In this document: one piece after another, positions 11,057 to 50,352 of the stretch
Layout: the number at the start of each line of letters is the position of its first letter
Numbering within the stretch: the stretch's first letter is position 1
NCBI GenBank assembly: GCA_021773055.1
Contig: JAJFKV010000044.1
Location: 20,151-84,150, forward strand
From: Woeseiaceae bacterium
GTDB taxonomy: Bacteria; Pseudomonadota; Gammaproteobacteria; Steroidobacterales; Woeseiaceae
Direction: 5' to 3'
Length of the DNA stretch: 64,000 nt
Notes under the pieces: generated by a model
Told to the model about the DNA's origin: nothing
Databases searched by the model: none
The model's input: the letters and a program-made list of their open reading frames with translations, nothing else
Program-made: the position numbers and the translations under genes

Positions 11057-11194
11057 GCGTCTCCCCTGTGAGTGTGAGCTAGGCATAGATTGACTAATAT
11101 ATCGCGGAATAAGGCTATAAAGCTTGCAAAACCTTTTACGTAAGTTCAAAACAGCGCATAATCAATGTGATTATCTATTACTGGCGACTAAATC

Positions 11195-11662
11195 ATGCAA
11201 AACGTTTCGCTCGACCATACCGACCGCAAGATTCTTGATTTGCTGCAGACCAATCCCGGCATCAATGCGACCGCGATTGGTGAGCGGATCGGGCTGTCGC
11301 AGTCTGCATGCTGGCGCCGCATTCAGCGTATGCGAGAGGAAGGCGTAATTCGCGATCAAGCCGTCATCCTGGATCGTGAGAAGGTCGGGTTGACGACGAT
11401 GGTATTTGCACACGTCAAGCTGACGTCACACGGCCGCAGTAATTTGTCTACATTTGCCGAAGACGTGAAACGCTATCCGGAAGTGATGGATTGCTACGTT
11501 GTGCTCGGCAATGTTGACTTCTTGCTGCGCATCGTCACTGAGGACATCAAGGCCTACGAACAGTTTTTCTTCGAAAAACTATCGCAGCTGCCGGGTATTC
11601 AAGAGGTTAATTCGAGCATTGTGCTTTCTGATATCAAGCACACAACGGCGCTCCCAATCTAG
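11195..11662 (+). CDS. bkdR: Lrp/AsnC-family transcriptional regulator, divergent from the ldh-bkd operon (BkdR-like)
   Basis: 155 aa with an N-terminal HTH (LDHTDRKILDLLQTNPGINATAIGERIGLSQSACWRRIQRMREEGVI) and a C-terminal AsnC/RAM domain. The divergent arrangement matches the Pseudomonas bkdR-bkd layout. Confidence 0.85.
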   Translation: MQNVSLDHTDRKILDLLQTNPGINATAIGERIGLSQSACWRRIQRMREEGVIRDQAVILDREKVGLTTMVFAHVKLTSHGRSNLSTFAEDVKRYPEVMDCYVVLGNVDFLLRIVTEDIKAYEQFFFEKLSQLPGIQEVNSSIVLSDIKHTTALPI

Positions 11663-11712
11663 CTGCGGTGACAGTGACCATAACTCCATCATGCCGGGCG
11701 AAATCATATTGA

Positions 11713-13062
11713 TTACTCGATTGGCTCATCTTCAATTTCCAGCTCCGTATCAGGCTCGGGCTCAGGCTCCGAGAGGGTTGCGAGCATTGCGGCAAACTGG
11801 GCGGGGCGATAGCGCTCATCGTTATTTAGTGTGTCCGCAATCCGGTCCAGCTGATCTTCGAGCCGGGGGTCATCAATTTCGATAACCAGCATTTGCACCG
11901 CCATGAATGCCTGCTCGGCGCTGATGTAATCAATGTAGTTACCTTCCGCTCCGGTGCCGAGAATTTCGCGCAACAACCGCATTTCATGACCGCTTGGATT
12001 TCGAGGAGACAGCTGACCTTGCAAGCGGGCCAGGACGACGTCGAGTATTGCTGCGGCCTCCCGGATGGCGTCGATATTGTCGCTGCCTGCACGATGCAAC
12101 GCGACGAGGCCGGACTCCATCGCCTCCCCATCGGACGGGGACAGGGCGCGCGCCAATGCCATCGACATTACGAGCGTACCGTCGTGTACAAACGGCACAC
12201 CGGGTCCGGCACCGCCGTGCCGCGGTAGTGGTCGCCACTGCACAGTCTTCATTGAGCGGTGACAAGCGTGGCAGTCATAAAGCCCGAGCTCCGGAAACAT
12301 TCCTTCGCCGTCGAAAAGTGGTCCATCAATCAAGCTCAGGCGATGCCGGCTTTCGGCGAGTAGTCCGGCAGCCCAGCTGTAGCTGTGGCTTACCGAGCCT
12401 TTGCGCTCGCGATAATCTGCATCGATCCGATAGTGAGGTTGGCGACCAAAAGTACGCCATAACTCCGTAAATGTATCGAGTTCAAACGCGAGGCGGGGGT
12501 GTCCTGCCGCCATGATGCGATGCGTTGCAAACTTGTCCTTTGTACCGAGATGACAAGAGAGACAAAGGTCGCCACGCTTCGATACGGATTCGGTTGGATA
12601 CAGGCCGGCCTCGAGATTCGCCGCATGCGTGACGGTCGGTTGGTTGTAATGTGTCGCCAACCAGTTTTCCGCACCACCGTGGCAGGATTCGCAGCCAACA
12701 CCATCGGAAAGGTGAAATCGCTCACCGCGCTGCTGGAGCGGGACATTATCCGCGTGGCAGTCTAGGCATATTTTCGCCGTAATTGCCGATCCCAACCCGA
12801 GTCGTGCGGCGATACCCTTCGATCGGCTATTGCTGAGAACTTCGTAGGCCAGAGAGTGTGGGTCGTCCTGCGTCCAAGTGACGTACTCATTCTGCAAGAC
12901 GTTGGAACCCTCGCGCGGTACCGCTGAGCCATGGCATTGAGAAGCAGCGCAAGTAGCAACGCCCATGTGAACATAGCCATCGTTCTCGGGTAACTCGGCA
13001 GAGGTCACGCCAGCCAGCAAGATGCCAAGCGCAGCAAGCGACGTTCTATTCATCTTCGACAT
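11713..13062 (-). CDS. Secreted multihaem c-type cytochrome (4 CXXCH + 1 CX4CH) with an acidic C-terminal tail
   Basis: Signal peptide MSKMNRTSLAALGILLAGVTSA. Haem motifs are CAASQCH, CLDCH, CESCH, CLSCH and CHACH. The tail is EPEPEPDTELEIEDEPIE. The start is 13062 or 13053, overlapping the upstream stop by 17 or 8 nt. Confidence 0.85.
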   Translation of the reverse strand: MSKMNRTSLAALGILLAGVTSAELPENDGYVHMGVATCAASQCHGSAVPREGSNVLQNEYVTWTQDDPHSLAYEVLSNSRSKGIAARLGLGSAITAKICLDCHADNVPLQQRGERFHLSDGVGCESCHGGAENWLATHYNQPTVTHAANLEAGLYPTESVSKRGDLCLSCHLGTKDKFATHRIMAAGHPRLAFELDTFTELWRTFGRQPHYRIDADYRERKGSVSHSYSWAAGLLAESRHRLSLIDGPLFDGEGMFPELGLYDCHACHRSMKTVQWRPLPRHGGAGPGVPFVHDGTLVMSMALARALSPSDGEAMESGLVALHRAGSDNIDAIREAAAILDVVLARLQGQLSPRNPSGHEMRLLREILGTGAEGNYIDYISAEQAFMAVQMLVIEIDDPRLEDQLDRIADTLNNDERYRPAQFAAMLATLSEPEPEPDTELEIEDEPIE

Positions 13063-16000
13063 ACCAGGGATTCCCCTCTGCATCGAGATACAGTTTCTGC
13101 ATCTCTTCATGAGTAAGTGGACGCGAGCCCTTGCGGCCGAATACCGCGATCTGACCGCCTGTTTCGTCGACACCGCGATCGCGATCAAGCCCTTTCGAAA
13201 GCGACAACACCGGACTTTGCGTTGGATAACTTGCGATCAGTTCGGGTTTCGGCAACGGGCTGAAGCCGTAAAAGTTTGGTTGTGAGCTCGGCGACGTCAG
13301 TTGCACAATCTTCAGGCCGTCGAAGCCATCAGCGACATAGGCGTAAAGAGATGCGTTGGTTGAGCCAACAACGACATCCCGCGAATCGCGGATCCGCCCG
13401 TTCGCATTGAAAAACTCAATGAGCTTCGGTTCTTCAGGGTTCCAGACATCGATGACAGCCAGCCCTTGTGAGCGTGCAGCTACGTAGGCATAGGTTCGAG
13501 CAACATATATGCGTTCGGCATCGTCAATCGGAACATGTGCGCCACTCATCCGTGGAGCGTCCGGGTTCGTTACATCAACAACGCGCAGCCCCGAATCGTC
13601 TGTGACAAACAGATAGCGAAATTGCAGCGCTGACGCACGACCGTTATCGAGCGGTACAATGGCCGTGATATACGGAATCATCGGCCGGTTCACATTGACG
13701 ATGATGAGTCCCCGATCCGCGACGATGTACAAATAGTGGCCGCCGATCGTGATGTGACGCGCACCGGCCAGTACGCCACCGGGGTTCCACGTCAAAGCTC
13801 GCTCGATGAAATTGTTATTCAGATCACCGTCAGAGAAGGTCGTTACATCAACCAGGATCAGCCCTTCCGTGCTGTCGGTTACAAATGCGTAGTCATAGAT
13901 CGGATGAAACGCCTGTTCCTGATTATCGATCCGCATCAGATCACCAGTATTTCGTGGCGGATGAATAGGTTGATTGGTGGGCAGTGCTACGCAGGTGGCG
14001 TACTTTGAGTTAACGTCTGAGTCGTGCCCCATTTTGCTAAAGGGCAACTCGACGATGCGCTGACTGAAGCCCTTGTTCGCAATGTTCGCAATGTCATAGA
14101 CCTGCAAACCCTTTTCGCCTTCCGCCGAATACAGATACTCTCCGCGCACTTGCACGCAACGTGCCGGTCCACCGCTATGTGTTGCGGCGGTCTGCAGAAC
14201 GCTGCCATCGTCCAGATGCTGCTGGAAATTATCCGGGTAGGCGTAACGGTGCAAATAGCTGCCGATTACCGCTTGTGGTTCGTCCCATTCGGTAACTTGC
14301 GTGCCGAGAATGCCGTCTTCCAGACCGGCCCAGGCATTGAAGCCGACAAAATTGACGAAGTTGGTACCGAACAGCAACAGTTGAGCCATCCACGCATTGT
14401 TATCACCCGCGGCGCTCAGGTGGCAATTGCTGCAGGTCTTGGTTTCAGTTTTTCGCGTCGTGTGCGGAAAGTGCGGATTCATTGCCTGTGAGCTGAAGCC
14501 ACTGGCCGCAACCGGTGCCTGTTGAACGTAGATGTGTTCGCGGTTCGCATTGGTCGACGACAAGACCAGAGCTGAAGAAGAACGTACTGGTGCAATCTTG
14601 CTATCGTTCAGTGGTCCGCGCCGACCGAGCATGAACATTTGATCGCGTGCTACCTGCGGGTTGTAGGTGGCGAAGTTACGAGATTCACCGCCGTCATAAT
14701 GATGACTCTCGGTTTTCCAGTTAGCCTCGATAGGCAAATGGCAGCCGGCACAACTTGTTATCCACGATGTGTGGCAGGTGTAGCACTCAATCTCTTCGTT
14801 TTGATGAGCGAGGTCTTCCGTCGCTACGCCCAATCCCCAGTCCTGGCTTTGTACGTCATCGCTCATCAACTTGGCGCGTGCTGCTTTTTCGTTGTACTCG
14901 GCGTGCTCGGGATTGACGCTGTCCTTGACCAGGCTCAACGCCCACTCGACGTCGGGGTCCAGTATTGATCGCTGGATGAGTTTGTCGCCTTGCCACTCGA
15001 AGCGGCGCTTGCCATTCTCATTGCGATACAGACGCATGTCTGTGCCACCCGGTGGTGCAGCGGGGCCTGATGTTCTCAAGTCCGGATACGACTGCGCTGT
15101 ACCGTGGCAATCCTTGCATTCGACTTCGACAGCACTCGCCACTTCGCCGTAAATATGCCCGTTGCCGTGATTGTCTTGCGTGAAGTGACAATCCACGCAG
15201 TGCATGCCTTTATCAACATGGATAGATGACATGTGTACAGCTTTGTCAAACTTGTCCGGATCATCGTTGGCGACGATGTTGCCATCGGCATCCAGAAGGT
15301 TGCCTCGCAAGTCGCGTTTTTGAATGGCGCGAAAATTCCAGCCGTGGCCGTGGTAATCCGCGAACTGCGTATCGTTTAGTTCGGGATTGAGATCGGTCAC
15401 GTTGCGCAGGAAATCGATGTCCGCCCACTTGCCACGAATGACCGCTCCTTCAGGGTTTCGGTCCTGGACCTCTCGCTGCTCGGCAATGCTCAGATTTTGT
15501 TGTTCCTCTGGCCACATGAAGGGCGCGTCGGACTCGTAATCCCACATCGTGTAGCCAAGATAGGAATTCATAAACATGTTGGGCTGGTGCATGTGACAAA
15601 CCATGCACTGGCTCGTCGGTATGGCGCGCGAAAACTCGTGTCGCAATGGGTGGCCTGATTCGCCTTTGGGAATAGTTGGATCAAGTGATGTTGATTCACC
15701 GTCACGGCCGAACGCAGCATAAGGGCCCGAGTGCCTCTCGTCACGGTCATTCGCGTAGACGACGTGGCAACTCGCACAGCCCGAAGATCGATAGTCGCCC
15801 GGCTGATCATTGGTGCCCATGAACCAGGTGAACGGATCGTTCAGACGAGTCTTGTGAATATTGATCAATGGCACGGCTATACGGCCGCCGGTACCAGGAC
15901 CACGATTGGACTGTCGCGTATCGGGCTTGCCCGGCTCTTCGAGTCGCTGTATTTGCCCCAGCGTATTCGGCAAACCGGTTTCCGGAAACAGGTTGGTCAG

Positions 16001-16711
16001 GTTTCTGCCGCCGTCCTCAAACACACGGAACACATCGGCTGGCTTGACACTTTCCCAGGTAGGCAATGGAAACAAGCCGGCGATGACGCCGTGTTGTTTC
16101 GCCACTTCGGGGTCGAGGTCGGACCCCGTAATTTTGGCGGGTTCGCCGTCTGCCGTATAGCCTTCACCGAGTATGTAGTTCTTGAACGGCAGTATGCCGT
16201 TATTGTATGCGGCACCACCCCAGAGCATGACGCCAGTTGCCATCATGCTGCGAATATTCGCATCGATAATTTTCTGATGGCATGCGCCGCAGGCCGTTTC
16301 AGCCACCCGATAGTCGGATGGATTGACGAAGCGGATGAACTCGGAGCTTTCGTGGTTGAGGAGCGTGTACGAGCGTTCCGGGTTGGCGCTTGACGGGAAA
16401 TGCCAGGTCTCCGGATAAAGCGGACTAACGTGCGCGCGATCAAGCGCAGATTCGTCATCCTTCTCGATCGTCGAGTCGCCGCCGTGACAATCGGTGCAAC
16501 CGAGCACCACAGACGGACTGTCATGCATGCTGCTGGCGTCGGTGGACGTGTGACAGCTTACGCAGCCGAAGCTTTTGAGCGCGGCCATTTGCTGTGACTG
16601 TCCTTCAGGCGCGGGCGGGTAGACAGGATATTCAACGTGCTGCGGTGCCTCGCCCTCCGAGGCCATCAGCATGAGCGGCAGTAGCAACAATAACGATGTC
16701 AGTTTCTTCAT
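13046..16711 (-). CDS. 1221-aa secreted decahaem c-type cytochrome fused to a C-terminal LVIVD-repeat beta-propeller
   Basis: Signal peptide MKKLTSLLLLLPLMLMASEG. There are ten CXXCH motifs in the first ~770 aa (CVSCH, CTDCH, CGACH, CASCH, CMVCH, CVDCH, CKDCH, CYTCH, CAGCH, CSNCH). The C-terminal ~400 aa carries six LVIVD-like repeats (GLQVYDIAN, GLILVDVTT, GLIIVNVNR, GLRVVDVTN, GLAVIDVWN, GLKIVQLTS). Confidence 0.85.
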   Translation of the reverse strand: MKKLTSLLLLLPLMLMASEGEAPQHVEYPVYPPAPEGQSQQMAALKSFGCVSCHTSTDASSMHDSPSVVLGCTDCHGGDSTIEKDDESALDRAHVSPLYPETWHFPSSANPERSYTLLNHESSEFIRFVNPSDYRVAETACGACHQKIIDANIRSMMATGVMLWGGAAYNNGILPFKNYILGEGYTADGEPAKITGSDLDPEVAKQHGVIAGLFPLPTWESVKPADVFRVFEDGGRNLTNLFPETGLPNTLGQIQRLEEPGKPDTRQSNRGPGTGGRIAVPLINIHKTRLNDPFTWFMGTNDQPGDYRSSGCASCHVVYANDRDERHSGPYAAFGRDGESTSLDPTIPKGESGHPLRHEFSRAIPTSQCMVCHMHQPNMFMNSYLGYTMWDYESDAPFMWPEEQQNLSIAEQREVQDRNPEGAVIRGKWADIDFLRNVTDLNPELNDTQFADYHGHGWNFRAIQKRDLRGNLLDADGNIVANDDPDKFDKAVHMSSIHVDKGMHCVDCHFTQDNHGNGHIYGEVASAVEVECKDCHGTAQSYPDLRTSGPAAPPGGTDMRLYRNENGKRRFEWQGDKLIQRSILDPDVEWALSLVKDSVNPEHAEYNEKAARAKLMSDDVQSQDWGLGVATEDLAHQNEEIECYTCHTSWITSCAGCHLPIEANWKTESHHYDGGESRNFATYNPQVARDQMFMLGRRGPLNDSKIAPVRSSSALVLSSTNANREHIYVQQAPVAASGFSSQAMNPHFPHTTRKTETKTCSNCHLSAAGDNNAWMAQLLLFGTNFVNFVGFNAWAGLEDGILGTQVTEWDEPQAVIGSYLHRYAYPDNFQQHLDDGSVLQTAATHSGGPARCVQVRGEYLYSAEGEKGLQVYDIANIANKGFSQRIVELPFSKMGHDSDVNSKYATCVALPTNQPIHPPRNTGDLMRIDNQEQAFHPIYDYAFVTDSTEGLILVDVTTFSDGDLNNNFIERALTWNPGGVLAGARHITIGGHYLYIVADRGLIIVNVNRPMIPYITAIVPLDNGRASALQFRYLFVTDDSGLRVVDVTNPDAPRMSGAHVPIDDAERIYVARTYAYVAARSQGLAVIDVWNPEEPKLIEFFNANGRIRDSRDVVVGSTNASLYAYVADGFDGLKIVQLTSPSSQPNFYGFSPLPKPELIASYPTQSPVLSLSKGLDRDRGVDETGGQIAVFGRKGSRPLTHEEMQKLYLDAEGNPWYVEDE

Positions 16712-18501
16712 CAGTACGCCAGAATCAGGTTTGCGAGTACGGAGTAGGCCGTGTCCGAGCCGAAAAGTTGTTTATAGCCATCGGCCGGGACGAGCGCGGA
16801 ACCCGCTACACGCAGAATAACGTTCTGCGATATCAGCGGCCGATAGGTAATCGCGAGCGACAGGTCCTGACCAATACTCTTGTCAATGTTGCCCTGATTG
16901 CGGGCGACTTCGAGTACTGCCGTATCGTCGAACCACAGCTGGTTTGCATTTATGGACGCGCGAATCTTCGGTGTGATTTCCATATCGACACCCACACCCG
17001 CCAGCAACAGCCCCGGGTTTGTGAAATTCGATTGCCCGTGCGCCTTGCTTGAACGCAACGAATTGAGCAGGCCGTTCTGTGACGAGAGCGTGACCCGGCC
17101 GCCACCGAGCAACGGCACCGCCTGACGAATCCAGAAACTAGTGTCGGCACCGGCGATCAGCGGATTCTCAAAAATCGCGTCGAAGCCCGTGGACTTGTCA
17201 TCATAGGGATCGTCATCTCCACTGCCATAGATGAGCGTTGCCCGGAGACGTAACCAGTCGAAATCTCGCGAGACCTCGACGGCTGCAAATGCGGCGCTGA
17301 TATCGCTCTCAAGGCCGGTAAATGTTGCGGGCTTTTCTGTGCCAAACGCGTAGTAAGCCGAAGCTGTCAGGTTCCAGCGACCGATGTGACCGTCGCCGTT
17401 ATAACCGACATATGTGACCTCATACTCGCGATTTCTCTGCACGCCGATAGCGGCAGGTCGAGCGAGAAATCCATTTGCGTCTACGAAAGGATCATCAATT
17501 TCGGAATTACGGTTGTGAACCAGCGCGATCTGTGAGGTGAAACCCAGTATCGGAAAGTCCTGTCGATAGAGATTAAAAAGTAATACGTCGTCCTCACGGA
17601 GGTCGGCGGAAATGTCGTTCAGTCCGCTGTTCGAGTCTTTCTCAAGACGGCGGAATACACCGATGTTGTATTGCCAGCGATTGTTGTTCCGCGTGCCGAA
17701 CAAGCGGATGCCCACCGGGCTGTCTTGAAACAGGAAACCCCGAAAGTCGGCCGTTATCGGCTGTATTCCGATCCTCAGACTATCGAAGTCAAAGCGATCG
17801 GAGACGTTGCGCAAATGCTTGTCGAGAAACAAGCCCTGGATGCCGACAAAGTTGTCACTTCGAGTTGTGCCCGCGGTTGGGTCGGCTCGCAAGATACCGG
17901 CTTCGCCGACTTCGACGCGTGTGAAATTAAGAACTGGCAGAATACGCAGCTCATAGTCAGGCGGCCTGAATATGGTCTCGCCTTTATAGAGCACCGCCTC
18001 AAGGAGGACGTTTTGAGTAAATGCTGTCTGATCGACGTCGCCAGGAACGTCGAGCTCACCCGGATCGGGTGATGTTGCGATCCCGACGGGTGTCGGCAGA
18101 CGGCGACCCTCAAAAGTCGAGTCCGAAATCAGATTGAAGGCGACAAACCAGTCGTTACCGAATGCGGGGCGATCACCTTTTAGAACGTTGTTGCCATGAT
18201 ACGGATCCCAAAGGCGCTCGGGATAACCGACAGCATTAACGATGCGCCAGCGATCCGGTATGGCTGCGAAATAGGGCAGGTCGCCCCAAACAGCTGGTGA
18301 AAGTCCGGGCTCATCACAGCGATGTGCTTCACGTGGCGGGTCACCAGGCCGGCGACGTAAGCGATCGAAATACTCGACGCAATCAGCACGTATGCCGGGA
18401 GCCTCCGCTTGCACAGCGTTTGACACGGACATCGCATAACACGCGACCAGTGTGGCAAGGCAAAGATGTCTATTTATTTTCACAGACATTCTGCTCGTCA
18501 C
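16711..18501 (-). CDS. Putative outer-membrane beta-barrel protein (family not recognised)
   Basis: About 590 aa with signal peptide (MSVKINRHLCLATLVACYAMSVSNAVQA-EAP). The sequence has alternating amphipathic, Gly/aromatic-rich segments throughout and a C-terminal ...SVLANLILAY ending in an aromatic residue. Its stop overlaps the next gene's ATG by 1 nt (TGATG). The start is 18501 or 18489. Confidence 0.6.
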   Translation of the reverse strand: MTSRMSVKINRHLCLATLVACYAMSVSNAVQAEAPGIRADCVEYFDRLRRRPGDPPREAHRCDEPGLSPAVWGDLPYFAAIPDRWRIVNAVGYPERLWDPYHGNNVLKGDRPAFGNDWFVAFNLISDSTFEGRRLPTPVGIATSPDPGELDVPGDVDQTAFTQNVLLEAVLYKGETIFRPPDYELRILPVLNFTRVEVGEAGILRADPTAGTTRSDNFVGIQGLFLDKHLRNVSDRFDFDSLRIGIQPITADFRGFLFQDSPVGIRLFGTRNNNRWQYNIGVFRRLEKDSNSGLNDISADLREDDVLLFNLYRQDFPILGFTSQIALVHNRNSEIDDPFVDANGFLARPAAIGVQRNREYEVTYVGYNGDGHIGRWNLTASAYYAFGTEKPATFTGLESDISAAFAAVEVSRDFDWLRLRATLIYGSGDDDPYDDKSTGFDAIFENPLIAGADTSFWIRQAVPLLGGGRVTLSSQNGLLNSLRSSKAHGQSNFTNPGLLLAGVGVDMEITPKIRASINANQLWFDDTAVLEVARNQGNIDKSIGQDLSLAITYRPLISQNVILRVAGSALVPADGYKQLFGSDTAYSVLANLILAY

Positions 18502-22044: not shown

Positions 22045-22048
22045 ATCG

Positions 22049-22918
22049 TCACCAGTACAGGAACACGGTTAGGATATGCGCAATCAGGGCCATAAGCAGA
22101 GCGGCCGTCAACGGGACATGGGCATAAAGCCAGATCTCAATGCCAGCCTGTAATTTCAGGTCTGCGCCGACCTGTCGCAAGAGTTTGCGCTTGTTGCGAA
22201 GCAGGGCGGACAACTCCGCGATCGTCGCGGCAGAATTCGCATCAGCACGCGATTGTTGCTCGGCGAGCCAGTCCATCGCAGCTTCCTGACCCGGGTTTAG
22301 AATGGTTTCCGCCTGATTCGGTATCTGAATACGGGACCGGTCTTCGTTACGCAATCGCTGCCACAAGGTACTGCCCAGCTCAGTACGCTGAATGCCACTG
22401 GTAACGAAGTCCTGATACTCATTTGGCAGATTTTCAGCAACCCGGCGGCTGCGCCGGTCAATGTCATCCAGCTGGTCGAGCAGCTCTGAACGACTCGAGC
22501 CATCACGATTTTCACTAAGCCGTTCCGGATACTTCAAATAGATGAAAACACCGTACATGCCGCTGACGATGACCAGTGTCATGAGCGCGAAAGCCAGCGT
22601 GTGAATATTCCATCCGACCTGGAACCCGGCATGCAGAAGAACGATGACAAACAACGCGATGCCGAAATAGACGTGCGCCGACAGCCAGCCCTGCAAGGTT
22701 CCCGCGGTCGAGCTGTAGCGTCGCTTTCGCACGCCAAACCACGTTAACCAGACAATCATTAACGCTCCGAATGTTCCCAGCGTGTAGCCAAGTACTGTGC
22801 CACCGTTGGGAGGCTCCTGTGGGTCATGAATCCAGTAGGCAAGCAGACAAACAATAGTCAGTGCCGTCGCCGCCCAAAGATAGCGGTACCTCCTGAAGAC
22901 GAGTATCGATTCGTGCAT
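22049..22918 (-). CDS. Integral membrane protein (4 TM + ~130-aa soluble insert + 1 TM) with two H-x13-H helices; putative di-haem b-type electron carrier
   Basis: TM3 is SAHVYFGIALFVIVLLHAGF and TM5 is YAHVPLTAALLMALIAHILTV, each with two His separated by exactly 13 residues. No other family motif was recognised. Confidence 0.55.
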   Translation of the reverse strand: MHESILVFRRYRYLWAATALTIVCLLAYWIHDPQEPPNGGTVLGYTLGTFGALMIVWLTWFGVRKRRYSSTAGTLQGWLSAHVYFGIALFVIVLLHAGFQVGWNIHTLAFALMTLVIVSGMYGVFIYLKYPERLSENRDGSSRSELLDQLDDIDRRSRRVAENLPNEYQDFVTSGIQRTELGSTLWQRLRNEDRSRIQIPNQAETILNPGQEAAMDWLAEQQSRADANSAATIAELSALLRNKRKLLRQVGADLKLQAGIEIWLYAHVPLTAALLMALIAHILTVFLYW

Positions 22919-22919
22919 C

Positions 22920-25301
22920 TCAGCTCGCCTTCTTGGTTAGATTGACGAACTCGGCAGGGCTCATTCGCAATGCCGCGCCGGTAGGGCACGCTCGTACGCA
23001 GGCCGGCCCGCCAGAAAGGTCTTTGCACATGTCGCATTTGACGGCTTTCTTGATGGCCGTCTTGCTGGCATCGGGACTACCTATGGCCTGACGTTCACCG
23101 GGCGCGGCGCCTTTGCCCGTCAGCAGCCAGTTCAACAGGCTCGGTGCCGCTTCTTTTTCGCTCGCCATTTGGATAACGCCATACGGGCAGTTGCGCTCGC
23201 AATTACCACAACCGATGCAACTGTCTTCAATATAAACTTCGCCATTGGGGGCGCGACGGATGGCGTCGGGCGGGCAGTCCTTCATGCAATGCGGATCTTC
23301 GCAGTGACGACACGAGGTCGGTACGTGAACCTGTGCATAGGACGGCCCGGCAGCGCGGTCGAGTCGTGATGTGCCGCCGTGGGTCTCCGCACAGGCTTTC
23401 TCGCAATTGTCGCAACCGACACACAAGGACTCGTCAATCAGCAGCACATCAGTTGCTTCACCCAGACCTTGTTGCATCAGGAATGAAATCAGGTCACCCG
23501 CATCCGGAGCGGCCTCCATGCGCAGGTTCTCACTGATGCGCTCTTTCACTTTTGTCTGGATGCGTTCACGCAGCCCGGTGTTGCGCAGCAGCATGGTCTG
23601 AAAAACGTCGGCGCGCAGGAAGACCGACTCTGTTGCCACAGTCGCCGTGACGGTCGCCGATCGACGCGTTTCTCCAACCAGGCCCATCTCGCCGACGTAG
23701 TTGCCCGCTGCCACGTAAGTCGTGACGATGTCGCGGCCACCGATATGGCGCGACACTGAAACCGAACCATTGCGTATCAGGTGCAATCCGTCTGCCTCAT
23801 CACCTTCTTTGAAGAGAACGTCATTAGCTCGAAATGAAATAAGCTCTGCCGTTGCAGCGACGGCTTCGAGCTCGCCCAGGGGTGAGTCCGGTACGAGATC
23901 AGCCTGCAAAGTGCGCACGATAAAGTGCTGATCGATGACCTGCCGCACCGGTTCGTAGCTGTTCATCAGCTTGATCATTTCGCGGCGCGGTGTTTCCAGT
24001 AACACGCAGTCCGCTGATGCACGCACAGTCGCTGAACGCCTGCGACCCGACAGTAAACTCATTTCGCCGAAGAACTGACCCTGACCCAGGCCGATAAACT
24101 GGCCATCATCCGTTTCGACCTCCACTTCGCCTTCGACGATGGATATGAACGAGTTGGTGTAATCATTCTTGTGGAAAATAACGTCGGCGCGCTTCGGCGT
24201 GAGCAATTCACTCGCGAGAACAAGTTCACGCAACACGAGACCATTAACGTTTTCAAACAGCGATACGTTGCCGCGAATCAACGCCAGTGTGTCATCGACA
24301 CCCTTGCCATACGGCAAGTGCCGGAACTTATCTTCGAGTATGCCGTGATCGGCCGGCAAAATATCGTTGCCCTTAATGAACTCAACGACTTCGTAGCCCT
24401 GGTTCATCGCCTGTTTGATAAGGGGGTAGCCCCCCAGTGCACCGATGACATACAGACCGGGCACATTGGATTCATAATGACCTGAAAGCTCGGGCAAGGT
24501 TGTTGGCTCATCACTCGGAAAAGTAATGCCAGTGGATTCCACGAAGCGACGCGGTGGGATGGCACCAACACGAGCGATCACGCGGTCGCACTCAACACGA
24601 GTCTCACCGGTCTCAGTGTTCAGGTTGATGGCTTTCGAGACTTCGATCGATGCGACACCTGTGTTGAAAAAACAGCTGATCGAACCATCTTCAATGGCGC
24701 GGGTAATCAGCGTCAGGTTGCCTTCTTTCGCGCGCGCAAACTCATCCCGGCGATTAACGATGACAACGGCGTTATTGCGCGCCAGCGCCACAGCATTTTC
24801 GATAGCCGCATCGCCAGCACCAACGATGGCGATAGTTTCATTCTTGTATTCATCGGGGTCGTCCAGCGTGTATTGCACACTTGAGTCACTCTCCCCGTCG
24901 ACGCCCATCTTGCGTGGATTACCCTGCAACCCTATGGAAAGAACGATTGTTTCCGCCTGTAAGGTTTCACCGTCGGCAAGTTGCAGTTCGAATTCAGGTC
25001 TGGAGCCCGTAATGGCGGTTACTTCCGCGTTGTAACGAATATTGACCTCAAGATCGTCGAGTCCGGATTGCCAGCTGCTGAGAATCGCCTCGCGCGTGCC
25101 TGCCGCAAATCCAAGATCACTTCGCAGTGGCACGACAGACGGTTCGGCCATGACGTGCTTGCCTTTCTGGTAGCGCTGGATCGTATTGGCGGGCGCGGCG
25201 CTGCTTTCCAGCAGCAGGTATTTCAGCCCGAGCACTTGCGCGCGTGCAGCCGCACTTAATCCCGCCGGCCCCGCACCGACGATGACGAGCTCAAGACTCA
25301 C
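22920..25301 (-). CDS. Cytoplasmic FAD/NAD(P)-dependent oxidoreductase (thioredoxin-reductase-like) fused to two cyclic-nucleotide-binding domains and a 4x[4Fe-4S]-motif ferredoxin domain
   Basis: Dinucleotide folds LVIVGAGPAGLSAA and IAIVGAGDAAIENA. cNMP phosphate-binding cassettes FGEMSLLSGRRRSATVRA and VGEMGLVGETRRSATVTA. Cys clusters CVGCDNCEKAC, CRHCEDPHCMKDCP, CIGCGNCERNCP and CDMCKDLSGGPACVRACP. There is no signal peptide and the start is GTG. Confidence 0.85.
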   Translation of the reverse strand: MSLELVIVGAGPAGLSAAARAQVLGLKYLLLESSAAPANTIQRYQKGKHVMAEPSVVPLRSDLGFAAGTREAILSSWQSGLDDLEVNIRYNAEVTAITGSRPEFELQLADGETLQAETIVLSIGLQGNPRKMGVDGESDSSVQYTLDDPDEYKNETIAIVGAGDAAIENAVALARNNAVVIVNRRDEFARAKEGNLTLITRAIEDGSISCFFNTGVASIEVSKAINLNTETGETRVECDRVIARVGAIPPRRFVESTGITFPSDEPTTLPELSGHYESNVPGLYVIGALGGYPLIKQAMNQGYEVVEFIKGNDILPADHGILEDKFRHLPYGKGVDDTLALIRGNVSLFENVNGLVLRELVLASELLTPKRADVIFHKNDYTNSFISIVEGEVEVETDDGQFIGLGQGQFFGEMSLLSGRRRSATVRASADCVLLETPRREMIKLMNSYEPVRQVIDQHFIVRTLQADLVPDSPLGELEAVAATAELISFRANDVLFKEGDEADGLHLIRNGSVSVSRHIGGRDIVTTYVAAGNYVGEMGLVGETRRSATVTATVATESVFLRADVFQTMLLRNTGLRERIQTKVKERISENLRMEAAPDAGDLISFLMQQGLGEATDVLLIDESLCVGCDNCEKACAETHGGTSRLDRAAGPSYAQVHVPTSCRHCEDPHCMKDCPPDAIRRAPNGEVYIEDSCIGCGNCERNCPYGVIQMASEKEAAPSLLNWLLTGKGAAPGERQAIGSPDASKTAIKKAVKCDMCKDLSGGPACVRACPTGAALRMSPAEFVNLTKKAS

Positions 25302-26932
25302 GGATTGCCGAATGCGGCTGCGCCGGAAACTGTTGTTCCGCTTTGCGGGTCCTGCAGGCTGTAGGTCATACCAACGCCCGCAGGAATCGCAGGATCCGAA
25401 GTGTCGCCGGGCTCACTGAAGAAACCGGAGAAAGTACCACTGCCACCCGTGGCCCCACCCACCACGACCGCGTTGTAGAAGCCTTCGAACAAGTGGGCCG
25501 GCAAGCCGATCTCCATTCCCATATCGCCGTTGCCTGAAGCGCTCCACGTTACACCGCCGATATCGATGACCAGTGTGCTGCTCACAGCAAGGTTGGTGAA
25601 GTCGGCCAGGAACGTTGCGCTGCCGAGTACGCCAGTATTACCCCGGTTGTCTGTCGGTGATGTTGCACCGATTAGTGAGTAGGAGGCTGTGCCTGTGATC
25701 GGCATGACCGGTGGCGCCTCTGCCGCACTGCTAATCCAGTGCAGGCTTTGACTGCCGAGGTCTTGGCTGACGTCGCTGCCATCACTAAGCAGCGTGCCGC
25801 TGGCAACCCCACCCGACCAACGCCCCCAACGCAACACGGTCATGGTATCGAAGCCCGTATCGGTATTGGTTGAGGTGCCGATGTTCCATGCCGCTGGCTC
25901 GCTGGCTACTCTGCCGGGGTATGGGCCGATAAAGCCTTCGAGATTGTTGCCGCCATCAAGTTGCAGCGACGCAGGATCATTAACTTGCATACCGCTGAAG
26001 GCTGTTCCAATAGCACCGAGCGGACCGGTTGAGTAACTAATCGTACGACCGGCCGTTGCTCGCGGTGATTCACCCGGCGTGATGTCGATCGGCGTGCCGT
26101 CCGGATCGATACCGATCACGGGTTGTCGCGGCGTTTCCGGATTAGCGCTGTCCTTCGGATCGGTTTCCTGAGAGTCCGGAGCACCCGAAGCCGGGTTGCG
26201 ACGAAGACCAAGTTTGTCGTCAAAGCCAGCCCTTACCGGTGTGCCATTGGCATCGAAGCGCAAGTCGTTGTCATCGATCAATACGGAAGGCGGTGCGTCG
26301 AGCCTTTCGGGAACGCGCGACGCCATCGGAATGAAGGCGTATTCGCCAGCGCGAACCACTATCTCACCACCCGGGGCGCGAAATACTATTACTCCTGCTG
26401 TTACTCCGATGTATAAACCGTCTTCAATGGGCTCGCCCGGATTCACATTAGGCGCCCAGTCGCAGTCACCACTACAAAGTAATATCGCGAAATTGGTGCC
26501 GCGAATACCGAGCGTCCCAACTGGTGTGCGGACCTCGTAGTTCGCACGGTTTTCCTCTCCAATGGCACCCGTGATGGTGCGTAAGCCGCCCTTCACCAGC
26601 GAGATGACGCTCTTGTCCTGTGATGTTTCAACAATCGTTGGCGACGCAGCCGCGTAAACATATTCGTCGATGCGTATTTCACTGTTTGGCCGAACAGCGA
26701 TTTTCGCACCATCGATCATCAGCAGTTGCGCACGAGATGCATCACCGGTGCTAATCGTATCGGTAGCCAGGACACCGTCGCCTTTCGCCAGTGCGACCAC
26801 GGCGTCACGCTGTGCGGTGACAGAACCTTTGCTGAATAACACCGAGCCGGCATCGTCAGCGCTCGCCTCAGCAACGAAAAAAAGTGCAACTACAAGCGAT
26901 GCCTGTGTGCATACTTTGAAAGAATTAATCAT
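25298..26932 (-). CDS. Secreted FecR-domain protein with a C-terminal TbpB/Slam-cargo-like 8-stranded barrel domain
   Basis: Signal peptide MINSFKVCTQASLVVALFFVAEASA with no lipobox. FecR-like region KGSVTAQRDAVVALAKGDGVLATDTISTGDASRAQLLMIDGAKIAVRPNSEIRIDEY. The C-terminus (MPITGTASYSLIGAT...GSATFLADFTNLAVSSTLVI...GSGTFSGFFSEPG...VGMTYSL...VSGAAAFGN) follows the TbpB-handle/HpuA/hemophilin barrel pattern. ATG 26932 forms ATGA with the upstream stop; GTG 26944 is an alternative start. Confidence 0.65.
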   Translation of the reverse strand: MINSFKVCTQASLVVALFFVAEASADDAGSVLFSKGSVTAQRDAVVALAKGDGVLATDTISTGDASRAQLLMIDGAKIAVRPNSEIRIDEYVYAAASPTIVETSQDKSVISLVKGGLRTITGAIGEENRANYEVRTPVGTLGIRGTNFAILLCSGDCDWAPNVNPGEPIEDGLYIGVTAGVIVFRAPGGEIVVRAGEYAFIPMASRVPERLDAPPSVLIDDNDLRFDANGTPVRAGFDDKLGLRRNPASGAPDSQETDPKDSANPETPRQPVIGIDPDGTPIDITPGESPRATAGRTISYSTGPLGAIGTAFSGMQVNDPASLQLDGGNNLEGFIGPYPGRVASEPAAWNIGTSTNTDTGFDTMTVLRWGRWSGGVASGTLLSDGSDVSQDLGSQSLHWISSAAEAPPVMPITGTASYSLIGATSPTDNRGNTGVLGSATFLADFTNLAVSSTLVIDIGGVTWSASGNGDMGMEIGLPAHLFEGFYNAVVVGGATGGSGTFSGFFSEPGDTSDPAIPAGVGMTYSLQDPQSGTTVSGAAAFGNP

Positions 26933-28278
26933 TGCGGCACCCACTGTAGCTGGAGACCGACTTCCGTGCGGTCATAGTCATAAAGTGCAATATTTGAATC
27001 GTTGTCTATGTAGCGAATTCTCGGCGTTAATGACAAACCGTCAGACCAGACATCGCTGAAGGTTACCTGCAATAGTGTTGAGACTTGTGTGTCCTCTCGT
27101 GATGTTCCGAAAAAGACACCGTCGTAGTCACTGGTCAGGCTACCTGCTGAGGCGAATAACTGTCCTTTGTTGCCAACCGCCATGTGCAGCGTGAGACGCC
27201 CGCCAATTTTCGAATTACCGTACGGAGAGCCGCTGTTACGTTCAGAGTCGTTGCCACCGATCACCTCAAAGCCGAGCTTGCCGGGAGATTCGAATTGATA
27301 GGTCAGGCCGCCGCTGTAAAGAATACGATCAACATCGAGCGTATCGATCAGGTCATCGTGTCGAATGGCACCACCGCGAAGGCTGAGCGTGATATCCCAG
27401 TTAGAAGCGATTCGACTTCCAAGTAATGCATCCAGTCCGAGATAGCTCTGATTCGGGTCTCCATCGCGTGTGGCCCAGTAACCATCGGCACCGGCCCGCC
27501 CAAAAAATGGGCCGCGCTGCCAGGTCACCCCGGTATTGCCGCTCAGGACACCAGAATCGACGAAACTGGCGTCCGGGTTGTGCCGGTAGCTGGCGCGGCC
27601 ACCGGTATACCAGCCAAATTGCGTGCTTTTCGGGTTATTCCAGTTAAAGCTGGCGCCGGCCTCGACGAACGATGTTTCAGTCTGCAGATTGTCCGGGCTG
27701 AGGATGAAGCCCATGAACTGCTGGTCGTCGGTCGAGCCGTTGGCGTTGTCATCGTAACCACCGGCCACATCGAACGAAAAGCGGAGACTACTCTTGGGAG
27801 GTGATGGTGTTGCGTCGATGGATGCAATGTAATCACTAATAATCGTGCGTACAGGCGCTGATGGCCCCTCATCCAGCAAACGTATGAACAACGGACGTGC
27901 CAGTGCTGCATTGCCGCTGTCGAAGTATGCGCGGGCGAGTTCCATTCGGGCCCCTGAAAATTCAGGGGAAACGGCCAGCGACCGGCGCAGGCTGAATATC
28001 GCATCACTGTGGTGTCCGGAATCCAGCGCGGCAACACCGAGGAGGTAGTCGAAATACGGATTACCGGCCAGTTCTACTTCACGCGTACTCAACAGGGTAA
28101 ATGCCGCGCCACTTTGGCCTGTGGCCAGCAACGACTCCGCATCTTGAAGAAACTGCCGTTGTTCAGCGCTGGCAGCGATTCGAAATGTGTCCTGAGCGAT
28201 GACCTCGGTTGTGAATACACAAAACCACACGGTGAGCGCCAGGATAGATACTTTCTTGATATTCGGTACGGGTAGCAT
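26929..28278 (-). CDS. TPR + C-terminal beta-barrel outer-membrane protein, Slam/DUF560 (type 11 secretion)-like
   Basis: Signal peptide MLPVPNIKKVSILALTVWFCVFTTEVIAQ. TPR-like N-terminal ~170 aa (GNPYFDYLLGVAALDSGHHSDAIFSLRRSLAVSPEFSGARMELARAYFDSGN) followed by a ~280-aa barrel-like region ending ...DSNIALYDYDRTEVGLQLQWVPQ. The size and architecture match Slam proteins. Confidence 0.6.
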   Translation of the reverse strand: MLPVPNIKKVSILALTVWFCVFTTEVIAQDTFRIAASAEQRQFLQDAESLLATGQSGAAFTLLSTREVELAGNPYFDYLLGVAALDSGHHSDAIFSLRRSLAVSPEFSGARMELARAYFDSGNAALARPLFIRLLDEGPSAPVRTIISDYIASIDATPSPPKSSLRFSFDVAGGYDDNANGSTDDQQFMGFILSPDNLQTETSFVEAGASFNWNNPKSTQFGWYTGGRASYRHNPDASFVDSGVLSGNTGVTWQRGPFFGRAGADGYWATRDGDPNQSYLGLDALLGSRIASNWDITLSLRGGAIRHDDLIDTLDVDRILYSGGLTYQFESPGKLGFEVIGGNDSERNSGSPYGNSKIGGRLTLHMAVGNKGQLFASAGSLTSDYDGVFFGTSREDTQVSTLLQVTFSDVWSDGLSLTPRIRYIDNDSNIALYDYDRTEVGLQLQWVPQ

Positions 28279-28325
28279 TTTTTTTATTTTCCCGCGATCC
28301 AAATCTTGAGCAGTGCTGTGCGGTA

Positions 28326-30467
28326 TTACTTGCTCAGGTGGTCGAAAACCCCATCCCAATCCGCCGGCGGTGGCTCTTGTTTGAACCGCTCTATCCGATC
28401 AAGGTACGCATTATATAGAAGCTCGCCCTTCTGTTCTGTCAATTTTTCGAACAACTGGCGTGAGATTTCCCAATCACAGCGCCGATACCCTGCCAGCGCT
28501 TTTTCATAATCTGCCAGCGTCGAAAGTTCTTTTTCGTCGAGCGTCCTTGTCTCACCTATTGGTTCGAATATTGCGACCGGTTTCGTCTTTCCTTTAACGC
28601 GAACGAGATCTAGCTCTCTAAACGTAAATTCAGGGATATCTGCCACGGTGCCTTCATTGACGATGATGTCGACACCGTATTGTTTGGTGAGCCCCTCAAG
28701 CCGCGAACCAAGGTTCACCGTATCGCCCATAACCGTATAGGCAATACGAAACTCTGAACCCATGTTGCCGACATTCATGTCGCCACTTGCGATGCCAACG
28801 CCAACACGAATGGGTGGCCAGCCTTTTGCTGCGAATGCCTCATCCAGTGATTCGACAGCTTGCAACATGCCGAACGCGGCGAGCAGGGCGTGCCTTGCGT
28901 GGTTTTCGTCCTGCAGCGGGGCGCCCCAAAACGCCATTACACAATCACCCATATACTTATCGATGGTGCCGCGGTGTTCTTGTATGACGCGAGTAAACGG
29001 CGTTAGAAACTCGTTCATCATTTGCGTCAGCTCACGTGCATCCAGCCCTTCCGAGATCGTAGTAAACCCTCGAACGTCCGAGAACAGTACCGACATTACC
29101 CGTGTTTCGCCTTCCAGAGACACTTCGGCGCCGCTGGCGTCGATTTCTTCTACAACGCCGGGTGGAATGTACTGACCAAAGATTTGTGACAAGTGCCGTT
29201 TGTTTCTTTGCTCGACAAAAAAACCATACGTGATTTGCAGTAACCCGGCGACCAGCGTGAATCCAATGATCGATGCGATTGGAATGACGAGATTGAATGA
29301 TGTCCAAAGCCAAAGGTTAGTTGTCATCGTCAGCGCAAGTATCGCCGCGACCATCAATAGTGATGACTGCGGTGAAAGTTTTGGCAACAATAGCGCAACG
29401 AGTGCGCCGATCAGGAATAACAAAGTGAACTCAAGGCCATTCGACCAGGCAGGTTGCCGGCGGATAGTTCCGTCGAGCAAACCCGCGACGAGATTCGCGT
29501 GCACCTCGACACCTATGTACCGCTGACCAACAGGGGTCGAGCGCAAGTCGAGCAGACCGGCTGCGCTTGCCCCGACCAGTACGATCTTGTCAGCCAGCCA
29601 TTCACGGGGTGCCGTCTTGTTGACGATGTCGCGAGCTGGAATGAAGCGGAAGCTTTCCTGCGGGCCGCGGAAGGGAATGAAAACAGCGGCTTGTTCGTTG
29701 ACGGGTATTTCTTTATCACCGATGCGGAACGACTCAAGATCGATTCCGCGTCGTTCGCTGCCGGCAAATTTGAAGCCAACAGGTGGCGCACCCATAGCCG
29801 AATGCGTTAGCGCCAGCGCCAGCGCCGGATAAAGGTCACCCCGGTAGCGTTGCACTAGTGGCGTGCGCCGGAATACCCCGTCGGAGTCAATTAATGGCGA
29901 GTCGAAAAAACCGCCACCAGATGCATTTTCCTGCAGCGCTTGCAGGCTGCCGGCATAGCCGGCCGCTGTGACAAAGGGCACGGAGATATCGGTGAGATCT
30001 GCGGCAGGAATGAATGCTGTGGGTAGTACGCCTGTGAATTCAGGTTCGTTTTGGCTGAGTGAGTCTTTGAATACGAAGCCTGTGACAATATTGCGGGCGA
30101 TAAACGACTCCGCAAAGGTTTCATTGCCACCGCCACGACCTGCTTCGGCGAACAATACATCAAAGCCCAACACATTGACGCCATAGTCATCAAACAGAAT
30201 ATCGAGAATGCCGGCGAGCGTTTCCCGTTCCCAGGGCCATTGCCCCAATTGCACCTGGCTGGCCTCGTCGATATCGACGATGACAATGCGATCATCGATA
30301 CCGCCCGGCATCGTAGTACGAACGCGTACGTCGTAAAGGTAGTTCTCCATGCGGTCGATCGCCTCGAACCGCGGCTTGCCGGCAACGTGCATAGAAAAAA
30401 TGATGAGCACGACCGTACTTATCAGGAGGCGTATCAGCAGTCGGGCCGTGCGAGTGGCGAGAGGCAT
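28326..30467 (-). CDS. CHASE2 sensor domain - TM region - class III adenylate/guanylate cyclase
   Basis: N-terminal TM plus a periplasmic CHASE2-like region (IVIVDIDEASQVQLGQWPWERETLAGILD), three further TM helices, then the cyclase core VLFSDVRGFTTISE, KYMGDCVMAFWGAP and YTVMGDTVNLGSRLE. Confidence 0.88.
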   Translation of the reverse strand: MPLATRTARLLIRLLISTVVLIIFSMHVAGKPRFEAIDRMENYLYDVRVRTTMPGGIDDRIVIVDIDEASQVQLGQWPWERETLAGILDILFDDYGVNVLGFDVLFAEAGRGGGNETFAESFIARNIVTGFVFKDSLSQNEPEFTGVLPTAFIPAADLTDISVPFVTAAGYAGSLQALQENASGGGFFDSPLIDSDGVFRRTPLVQRYRGDLYPALALALTHSAMGAPPVGFKFAGSERRGIDLESFRIGDKEIPVNEQAAVFIPFRGPQESFRFIPARDIVNKTAPREWLADKIVLVGASAAGLLDLRSTPVGQRYIGVEVHANLVAGLLDGTIRRQPAWSNGLEFTLLFLIGALVALLLPKLSPQSSLLMVAAILALTMTTNLWLWTSFNLVIPIASIIGFTLVAGLLQITYGFFVEQRNKRHLSQIFGQYIPPGVVEEIDASGAEVSLEGETRVMSVLFSDVRGFTTISEGLDARELTQMMNEFLTPFTRVIQEHRGTIDKYMGDCVMAFWGAPLQDENHARHALLAAFGMLQAVESLDEAFAAKGWPPIRVGVGIASGDMNVGNMGSEFRIAYTVMGDTVNLGSRLEGLTKQYGVDIIVNEGTVADIPEFTFRELDLVRVKGKTKPVAIFEPIGETRTLDEKELSTLADYEKALAGYRRCDWEISRQLFEKLTEQKGELLYNAYLDRIERFKQEPPPADWDGVFDHLSK

Positions 30468-30554
30468 GGCGCCAATTTACACGAATTCGCGCACGATACG
30501 GAATCAGCTTTCAACATGAAGCTGCTGCAGCGTCATTTCGACGCAGCGGCTCTC

Positions 30555-30647
30555 TTCGAAAAACTTTCGCAACTACCTGGCATCCAGGAGGTCACTTCTA
30601 GCATAGTGCTGTCCGACATCAAACACACGACGGCATTGCCTATTTAA
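30555..30647 (+). pseudogene. Orphan 3' fragment of an Lrp/AsnC-family gene (last 30 codons + stop)
   Basis: It translates to FEKLSQLPGIQEVTSSIVLSDIKHTTALPI*, which is 29/30 aa identical to the C-terminus of the intact regulator at 11570-11662. By hand alignment it is only 71/93 nt identical. There is no N-terminal HTH part. Upstream it lies opposite the start of the cyclase gene. Confidence 0.8.
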
Positions 30648-30696
30648 CTAACGCCGAAAGTCGCGACTTGCGGTTTATCGCAGAGGGAGAAATTAG

Positions 30697-31197: not shown

Positions 31198-31374
31198 CGG
31201 CTGATAAGCCCTTGGTTTTGAACATAATATAAATACTAATATTCTATTTGTTGTATTTTTAATACAAATAATTCGATATCTGCACACGGTCTCAACGCGC
31301 ACAGAATGGCTAAACTTAGCCGTTATAACCAGATGTTCCTAAACTTTTCTGTTTTCGCCAGTCGAAGCCCCCAC

Positions 31375-31398
31375 GCGTTGTGAGAAAAATACAACGTG
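31375..31398 (+). promoter_or_regulatory. Conserved inverted-repeat leader/operator motif upstream of TonB-dependent receptor 1
   Basis: gcgttgtgagaaaaatacaacgtg has arms CGTTGT-N9-ACAACG and ends 27 nt before the ATG. A 20/24-identical copy sits at the same relative position upstream of the second receptor. Confidence 0.5.
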
Positions 31399-31425
31399 TC
31401 ATTTTTCAATCAAGGGGATATTGCC

Positions 31426-35935: not shown

Positions 35936-35959
35936 GCGTTGTGCGATAAATGCAACGTT
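35936..35959 (+). promoter_or_regulatory. Second copy of the conserved inverted-repeat motif, upstream of TonB-dependent receptor 2
   Basis: gcgttgtgcgataaatgcaacgtt has arms CGTTGT-N9-GCAACG (one G-T/U wobble) and ends 29 nt before the ATG at 35989. Confidence 0.5.
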
Positions 35960-50281: not shown

Positions 50282-50352
50282 AGTGGCGCCCTGAGCGTTA
50301 TTGATATGCGCAAGACCTTAGCATGGCTGCGGCATCGCTGTAATATCCTCCT

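Follow-up and report, generated by a model that had tools for sequence, protein, structure and literature searches.

An orphan 3' end of lrp and the probable joining of two versions of a variable island in a Woeseiaceae bacterium

A 64-kb window from a Woeseiaceae bacterium (the whole stretch of DNA analysed here, part of a metagenome-derived assembly) contains an intact gene for an Lrp/AsnC-family regulator, lrp, and, beyond a ten-gene operon for multihaem cytochromes and signalling proteins, an orphan copy of the lrp 3' end. Comparison with relatives, whose contigs or loci are labelled by L-numbers (OFTM327, GCA_021773115.1, corresponds to L090 plus L011), indicates that this orphan probably marks the joint of two alternative versions of an island, brought together by recombination between lineages with an illegitimate joint. 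The structure is chimeric, both parental layouts occur in relatives, and no mobile-element genes are present. Left of the joint, the operon layout extends up to 87 nt upstream of the CHASE2 gene, the first of the operon (30468-30512, promoter region; 30513-30554, the rest). Right of the joint, the small/TonB layout, with genes for a small secreted-type protein and a TonB-dependent receptor, runs from lrp codon 126 on to DUF885 and ykuD. Homology does not extend across the joint, and the repeat begins abruptly at 30553/30555. The features concerned are as follows.

11195..11662, +: intact lrp, Lrp/AsnC-family (BkdR-like) regulator, 155 aa, HTH_AsnC-type and AsnC_trans_reg domains (Pfam labels of an identical product)
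11570..11662, +: copy A, last 30 codons plus stop of intact lrp (repeat alignment)
11713..30467, -: ten-gene operon, all ten genes on the minus strand (Pfam)
30468..30512, -: upstream region of the operon, in which the conserved motif TCGTGTAAATTGGCGCC directly precedes the ATG; its 45 nt align with L093/L096
30513..30554, no strand: 42-nt spacer from the promoter region to the orphan, the putative illegitimate joint at the right edge
30555..30647, +: copy B, orphan lrp 3' end, codons 126-155 plus stop (repeat alignment)
30648..30675, -: alpha, an orphan asparaginase 3' remnant that encodes QVATFGVS and whose stop overlaps the lrp stop
30697..31197, +: small secreted-type protein, no Pfam family, first gene of the right-hand layout; closest homologues in L138 (81%) and L139 (70%)
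31396..34545, +: TonB-dependent receptor, 1049 aa, Plug domain
34607..35506, -: intact asparaginase of the right-hand layout (Asparaginase_2, Pfam)
48512..51258: DUF885 gene (48512-50281, -) and ykuD (50353-51258, +), the right island edge, where the conserved core resumes

Intact lrp and its orphan tail

Copies A and B are identical at 71 of 93 nt and at 29 of 30 aa, with one N/T difference at codon 14 of the segment. Twenty of the 22 nt differences fall at third positions (one of these in the stop codon, TAG/TAA), one at the first position of a Leu codon (CTC/TTG) and one, the only non-synonymous change, at a second position. This recount gives the same figures as a first-pass annotation of the window, which had reported one non-synonymous codon and changes mostly at third positions. 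By the Nei-Gojobori method, 20 synonymous differences (Sd) over 22.2 synonymous sites give a pS of 0.90, which is saturated, and a single non-synonymous difference (Nd) over 67.8 sites gives a pN of 0.015. The similarity is beyond chance (blastn E = 2e-15; tblastn E = 5e-13), and the pair is the longest direct repeat in the 11-51 kb region (D1: 11568-11664 / 30553-30649). The local alignment begins at 11568/30553; the weaker similarity that had been thought to reach back to about 30516 was not borne out, as 30513-30554 does not match the sequence upstream of lrp significantly (p = 0.15 by shuffling).

lrp orthologues 85-97% identical to that of the window all come from Woeseiaceae or unclassified Gammaproteobacteria of marine sediments. 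The gene lies divergently beside a LeuDH-BCKDH cluster in every context recovered, which marks it as a conserved BkdR-like gene of the core. Left of lrp, the first gene of that cluster, itself conserved core, is assigned from synteny with L004, L090 and L140-145 and from the Pfam labels of the genes called there:

10004..11065, -: Leucine/Glu-type dehydrogenase (ELFV)

The Lrp C-terminus is near-invariant over the 120 homologues listed. The peptide of copy B is the commonest variant of the family (19 of these 120), contains no private amino-acid change and ends at an intact stop. Judged from these features, copy B was once the tail of another, orthologous lrp allele and has been displaced from it. 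The pS and pN values and the common-variant peptide support the proposal, already made in the first-pass annotation, that the two 3' ends diverged under purifying selection in different lineages before they were joined. The lack of private changes and the intact stop suggest that the truncation took place recently compared with the splitting of the two alleles; from the synonymous and non-synonymous site counts, neutral divergence of the orphan since truncation is estimated at less than about 4%. Copy B is the sole orphan among about 25 lrp 3' ends collected.

The direct-repeat geometry would also be produced by an intragenomic origin, in which copy B is the remnant of a local lrp duplication or of an lrp paralogue in the same genome. 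This origin is extremely unlikely, because a saturated pS of 0.90 with an unchanged peptide requires long separate evolution as functional genes, the orphan peptide is that of a BkdR-type orthologue and not of a paralogue, and the flanking alpha and small gene match the sequence 3' of the orthologous lrp in L138.

The orphan consists of the last 30 residues and has no helix-turn-helix (HTH), so that it is not a regulator, and it is most likely inert. An open reading frame (ORF) runs into it:

30517..30647, +: ATG-initiated 43-codon ORF (translation only)

As this ORF is in frame with the orphan, which retains its stop and has no private amino-acid changes, it might encode a micro-protein corresponding to the last strands of the Lrp ligand/oligomerisation domain and modulating Lrp assembly, which would explain the synonymous-only pattern. 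Such a function is given very little credence here. No promoter-like site was found upstream of the ORF on the plus strand, nor were promoter or terminator signals for its expression, and no Shine-Dalgarno sequence was seen before it on inspection. The fragment is known from one lineage only, so its conservation is not demonstrable. Divergence before the recent truncation fully explains the synonymous-only pattern, and the zero private changes bound decay to less than about 4%.

The resident operon and the left edge of the interval

The operon encodes, in order, a CHASE2 cyclase, a TPR/Slam-like protein, a FecR-domain protein, a cNMP-binding flavoprotein-ferredoxin fusion, a cytochrome-b-like membrane protein, an FHA-decahaem cytochrome, an HbpS-like protein, a 596-aa protein of unknown family (no Pfam match), a 1221-aa LVIVD decahaem cytochrome and a c554-like tetrahaem cytochrome. 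Its 24 CXXCH motifs are divided among the FHA cytochrome (10), the LVIVD cytochrome (10) and the c554-like cytochrome (4). The operon thus pairs a signalling trio (CHASE2 adenylate/guanylate cyclase, FecR-domain protein and TPR/Slam-like barrel) with redox proteins, among them the cNMP-binding protein, a flavoprotein-4Fe4S fusion. Relatives of the CHASE2 gene occur widely among Betaproteobacteria, for example in Polaromonas and Rhodoferax.

The stop of the last operon gene lies 50 nt (11663-11712) from the lrp stop, and 87 nt separate the CHASE2 start codon (30467) from the orphan; the earlier estimates of 50 and about 90 nt were accurate. The interval had been described as containing only the operon. 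The ten genes are indeed its genes, but it also contains two short elements at the lrp end:

11667..11687, +: solo repetitive extragenic palindromic (REP)-like element GGTGACAGTGACCATAACTCC; the motif also occurs right after the lrp stop in L003, L136, L145, L090 and L004
11690..11729, -: asparaginase 5' remnant of 13 codons, MSQSSNQYDFARH, overlapping the last codons of the terminal cytochrome gene

These elements have counterparts in relatives in which the operon is resident. At the OFTM327 locus, lrp is followed by REP copies, a Y1_Tnp gene, asparaginase (-), the same ten genes (-) and a TonB receptor. An OFTM327-like lrp (L091) is also present in SRR15505512, a sister of run SRR15505515. 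In L136, the closest relative found, lrp is followed by REPs, Y1_Tnp, asparaginase and the 3' end of the terminal cytochrome gene, where the contig ends; in L145/L146 (TARA), it is followed by REP, asparaginase and then the first four operon genes. The gene order of the operon is the same in L010, L011, L014, L016, L017, L090 and L145. These loci show that other Woeseiaceae regularly carry the operon 3' of lrp (OFTM327, L136 and L145/L146; three or more lineages).

The order of the REP and the 13 asparaginase codons in the window is that of L136, L090 and L145, where a complete asparaginase gene starts at the site equivalent to 11690-11729 and overlaps the end of the cytochrome gene. Window 11690-11909 aligns with L136 3403-3622 at 91.8% nt identity, over the end of the last cytochrome gene, and L136 bases 1797-3402, which contain Y1_Tnp and most of asparaginase, are absent from the window. 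Because the REP and the asparaginase remnant are syntenic with operon-bearing relatives, copy A does not lie at the end of an inserted cassette. By this comparison, inherited synteny and a 1.6 kb deletion account for the left 'boundary', which is not an element end. The loss of Y1_Tnp and the left asparaginase would be a separate deletion, tolerable once a second asparaginase was present. The REP would at most have been involved in this secondary 1.6-kb deletion: it has one exact copy only in the window, at 11667, and none at the orphan joint.

Also at this edge, window 11698-11796, which codes the acidic PEPEPD-rich C-terminal tail of the last cytochrome gene, matches L003 7552-7644 on the same strand (74.7% nt, E = 1e-10), where the match is the end of a short ORF with a weak TonB-barrel similarity. 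This similarity is unexplained and may be a low-complexity effect.

In the operon-bearing relatives that are readable upstream of CHASE2, the lrp fragment is missing. None occurs within 3.9 kb upstream of the CHASE2 gene in OFTM327, where the CHASE2 side is readable, or within 10 kb upstream of CHASE2 in L010-L018 and L023 (about ten operon-bearing genomes). OFTM327 thus has the operon at this locus without the orphan, an arrangement that the first-pass annotation had named as contrary to its cassette.

A foreign composition of the operon, as expected of an imported cassette, was considered and ruled out, because the GC profile, per-gene GC content at third codon positions (GC3) and tetranucleotide usage of the operon are core-like. 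Tetranucleotide z-score correlations are 0.62-0.66 between operon and core, and 0.61 between core left and core right. The identity of the operon proteins to those of OFTM327 (58-87%) overlaps that of neighbouring core genes (71-90%).

The upstream region of the operon is shared more widely than the operon. The motif TCGTGTAAATTG(G/T)CGC(C/G) at 30468-30488 (-) ends right at the first-gene ATG, and in L010, L011, L016-18 and L023 the motif stands 6 nt upstream of the first ATG. It probably represents an extended -10 promoter whose mRNA would be leaderless or nearly so. The same motif precedes asparaginase in the operon-less L093, L096, L137 and L003. The position of the motif before CHASE2 where the operon is present, or before asparaginase where it is absent, suggests that the ten genes were gained or lost precisely between promoter and asparaginase.

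These results bear on site-specific integration, in which the operon, together with a substitute lrp 3' end, would have entered as a circular cassette at a core sequence in lrp, with copy A as attL, copy B as attR and an integrase that was lost or acted in trans. The direct, partly diverged duplication of a gene 3' end, the existence of an empty site (L138 and L139; see below) and the 13 identical nt TCTTCGAAAAACT at the 5' edge of both copies are as such integration would leave them. TCTTCGAAAAACT codes the conserved FFEKL, and the 13-nt identity is therefore expected anyway. The Pfam scan of the ten operon genes and ten further island genes revealed no integrase, transposase or recombinase in the 38.6-kb island, and no tRNA, tmRNA or Rfam element that could serve as an integration target was found; the absence of integrase, transposase and tRNA noted in the first pass thus stands. 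In addition, the left end is not an element boundary, given that REP, asparaginase remnant and operon are syntenic with operon-resident relatives; no second orphan occurs at the site among about 25 lrp loci and about ten operon loci; and the operon has the composition of the core. Site-specific integration is therefore unlikely, and the discrete cassette with attL/attR-like ends is not retained here: the operon is resident at the locus in relatives, and the left repeat does not lie at an element end.

The joint and its proposed origin

The two layouts are versions of one variable island (11674-50314, 38.6 kb) bounded by lrp and ykuD. In L004, lrp is joined straight to ykuD, with window 11673 adjoining 50315; in L004 and its kin, lrp is followed by ykuD-dsbA-cytochrome c-engB-polA, matching the window from 50315 on. 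In L140-144, just asparaginase and DUF885 lie between lrp and ykuD, and the stops of asparaginase and lrp share 4 nt. As read from these loci, the simplest island layout is lrp and asparaginase tail to tail. The flanks common to both layouts (BCKDH-LeuDH-lrp and DUF885-ykuD) are 76-89% identical in nt and could serve as an anchor for recombination.

The right-hand layout without the operon is seen in L138 and L139, where a non-truncated lrp, which only the contig end cuts short (137 codons or more in L138, 69 or more in L139), is followed by alpha and then by the small gene, 50-66 nt from lrp. This is the empty site that the first-pass annotation had predicted, with lrp directly before the small-protein gene. 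L138 aligns to window 30555-31199 at 83.9% nt identity, and the homology of both L138 and L139 starts exactly at 30555; the L138 lrp is 85.1% identical to the intact lrp of the window. Orthologues of the 1049-aa TonB receptor (66-87% identical) lie beside asparaginase, the small gene or lrp in L092-L096; in L093/L096, an alkylsulfatase-like gene, and not lrp, is upstream of the orthologue.

The two sides of the joint also differ in their relationships. The LeuDH-lrp stretch of the window is 88.8% identical in nt to L136 and 83.3% to L003, whereas asparaginase 34607-35506 is 85.6% identical to L003 and 78.2% to L136. These opposite rankings suggest that the two sides have different histories.

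The spacer 30513-30554 was compared with the intergenic region from promoter to small gene in L093/L096; only 30468-30512 aligns, and the similarity of 30513-30554 is non-significant (p about 0.2). On this ground, a small insertion of the orphan into a contiguous L093/L096-like spacer was rejected.

A joint of this kind could also be an assembly chimera, in which two co-occurring populations, one per layout, were misjoined, given that the source is metagenome-derived and that both layouts occur in nature. However, an independent Logan contig, L002 (run SRR15505515; 8 single-nucleotide polymorphisms in 2018 nt), contains the identical CHASE2-fragment-small gene junction. Moreover, the joint fuses non-homologous sequence, whereas a k-mer chimera via lrp would give a hybrid full-length lrp, and the longest exact word common to both copies, 13 nt, is too short for such a graph chimera. 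A misassembly is thus scarcely credible.

Inter-lineage recombination could have proceeded as follows. DNA of two Woeseiaceae lineages would have recombined by a homologous crossover in a shared flank at one end and illegitimately at the other, where the joint would fuse the operon upstream region to lrp codon 126 (break at codon 125/126). Candidate regions for the crossover are BCKDH-lrp on the left, or DUF885-ykuD or other shared genes on the right. Either the operon side with the intact lrp entered an empty-site genome, in substance what the first-pass annotation had proposed, or the small/TonB side, beginning inside the donor lrp, entered next to a resident operon. Events of this type, homology-facilitated illegitimate recombination, would not require an integrase.

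Several points weigh against this explanation. No strain-level relative of either parent was found: the closest are 84-92% identical in nt, and the available relatives are 8-25% diverged. Neither the homologous crossover nor microhomology at the joint has been mapped; the latter would require the parental intergenic sequence, and the recombination mechanism is read from the structure alone. L138 and L139 are short contigs, so the remaining empty-site layout is not seen in one piece. The 13 identical nt would also fit a short recombination core. The tail nearest to copy A is that of L136, which has the operon layout (78/93 nt), and the tail nearest to copy B is that of the L138 lrp (80/93 nt), but this nearest-neighbour signal comprises 93 nt with margins of 2-6 nt and is statistically non-significant. 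Telling the native copy from the 93-nt tails together with lrp codons 1-125, compared with L136, L138 and L003, was tried and proved underpowered; in the lrp comparison, L136 and L138 are mutually closer than either is to the window.

Next to the orphan lies another scar of its type. Alpha encodes QVATFGVS, and asparaginase C-termini for comparison are ..LKVATFSVS*, ..LQVATFTETQ* and similar. Alpha-type remnants also follow lrp in L136 and L138, and in L092, L137 and L140-144 the position of alpha is held by a complete asparaginase gene that abuts or overlaps the lrp stop. In L136, the remnant by lrp (1701-1730) and the real asparaginase 3' end (2552-2581) form a diverged pair (about 22/29 nt, by hand count). 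This asparaginase pair mirrors the lrp pair of the window, which suggests repeated events of like kind in the island. In earlier events, asparaginase would have been split at its 3' end by the small/TonB genes in one layout and by a REP/Y1 unit in another, with a new copy of the gene supplied at the same time.

Both tails could be explained by one principle. As lrp and asparaginase overlap tail to tail, an insertion between them must cut one gene; only events bringing a replacement copy would survive, and each would leave an orphan tail. Such cutting and replacement at the overlapping tails would account for the orphan lrp tail as well as the asparaginase tail. A more far-reaching version, in which the lrp/asparaginase junction is a preferred entry point for modules (the respiratory operon and TonB/sulfotransferase sets being swapped), the nested tails record the order of acquisition, and the orphan 43-codon ORF is expressed and interferes with Lrp oligomerisation, is very improbable.

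Related systems and further genes of the island

The nearest known counterpart of the proposed recombination is homology-facilitated illegitimate recombination (de Vries & Wackernagel 2002; Prudhomme et al. 2002; Meier & Wackernagel 2003, all through PMC5361080; also PMC3240628). As in that process, one end would lie in conserved shared sequence and the other at a homology-free joint, foreign genes would be gained together with a truncated leftover gene, and no recombinase gene is needed. Unlike the cases seen experimentally, the process is proposed here on the basis of a product found in nature, in uncultured bacteria. The segment exchanged would also be large, 19 kb or more, or several kb or more if the transfer went in the other direction, and anchor, microhomology and direction are unmapped.

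At Rhs, contact-dependent inhibition (CDI) and type VI secretion system (T6SS) effector-immunity loci, an incoming allele displaces the resident 3' end, which is kept downstream as an orphan (Kirchberger et al. 2017, PMC5361080). Such orphans can be serial or nested, as are the lrp tail and then the asparaginase tail of the window. However, genes at those loci combine an invariant 5' part with a hypervariable toxic 3' part and are accompanied by immunity genes, and their orphans can be selected, whereas the lrp 3' end is highly conserved (29/30 aa) and non-polymorphic, and its neighbours are a small secreted-type protein and a TonB receptor.

Genomic islands, integrative and conjugative elements and prophages integrated into 3' ends resemble the locus in that a direct, partly diverged 3'-end duplication brackets accessory genes and a replacement end keeps the gene intact. 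They differ in that, here, there is no integrase, the left repeat is off the boundary, the cargo is locus-resident in relatives and no second occupied site was found among about 25 lrp loci and about ten operon loci.

A further partial likeness is to units of REP sequences and REP-associated tyrosine (Y1) transposases (RAYTs). In L003, L136 and L090, REP-like palindromes of the GGTGACAGTGACC type flank a Y1_Tnp (RAYT-like) gene 3' of lrp, with inverted REP copies on its far side in L003 and L136; these relatives' units lie between lrp and asparaginase, and the window keeps one repeat of this type at the deletion edge. The REP-like palindromes right after the lrp stop, present in many lineages, lie at L003 641-700, L136 1730-1790, L090 10480-10560 and L145 10480-10500. 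The window differs in having no RAYT gene, with no Y1_Tnp gene in its whole 64 kb, and no REP at the orphan joint.

If the recombinational origin is correct, the locus is a natural example of the shuffling of a 19-kb multihaem cytochrome/signalling operon between lineages of an abundant, almost uncultured marine-sediment family, by general recombination at a conserved regulator gene and not by a mobile element, with both parental layouts recovered from metagenomes. It would add one more instance to a type of recombination scar already known, and reveals no new mechanism: homology-facilitated illegitimate recombination and strings of orphaned 3' regions have been described for other loci, Rhs and T6SS (PMC5361080; PMC3240628). 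Gene tails orphaned in this way are useful as markers when tracing how islands were assembled. For annotators, the locus is also a warning that a bracketing direct repeat alone does not indicate an integrative element.

The small secreted-type protein of the right-hand layout (30697-31197, 166 aa) has a paralogue in the island (43641-44177, 178 aa), and both are without a Pfam family. Both match one ORF of L003, with identities of 41% and 75%, respectively. NCBI labels one distant homologue 'type VI secretion protein', and one has PF11319.

Tandem paralogous TPR-sulfotransferase genes at 40459-42096 and 42104-43666 form the direct repeats D2 and D8, with a spacing of 1582 nt; TPR-sulfotransferase-like genes near TonB receptors also occur in L003 and L010. 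L139 1282-1365 and L137 2504-2650 match window 35898-36043, where the second TonB receptor gene (35950-39000) starts, together with sequence just upstream of it. This region lies close 3' of lrp and the small gene in L139, and of lrp and asparaginase in L137, which shows further alternative orders of the same island genes.

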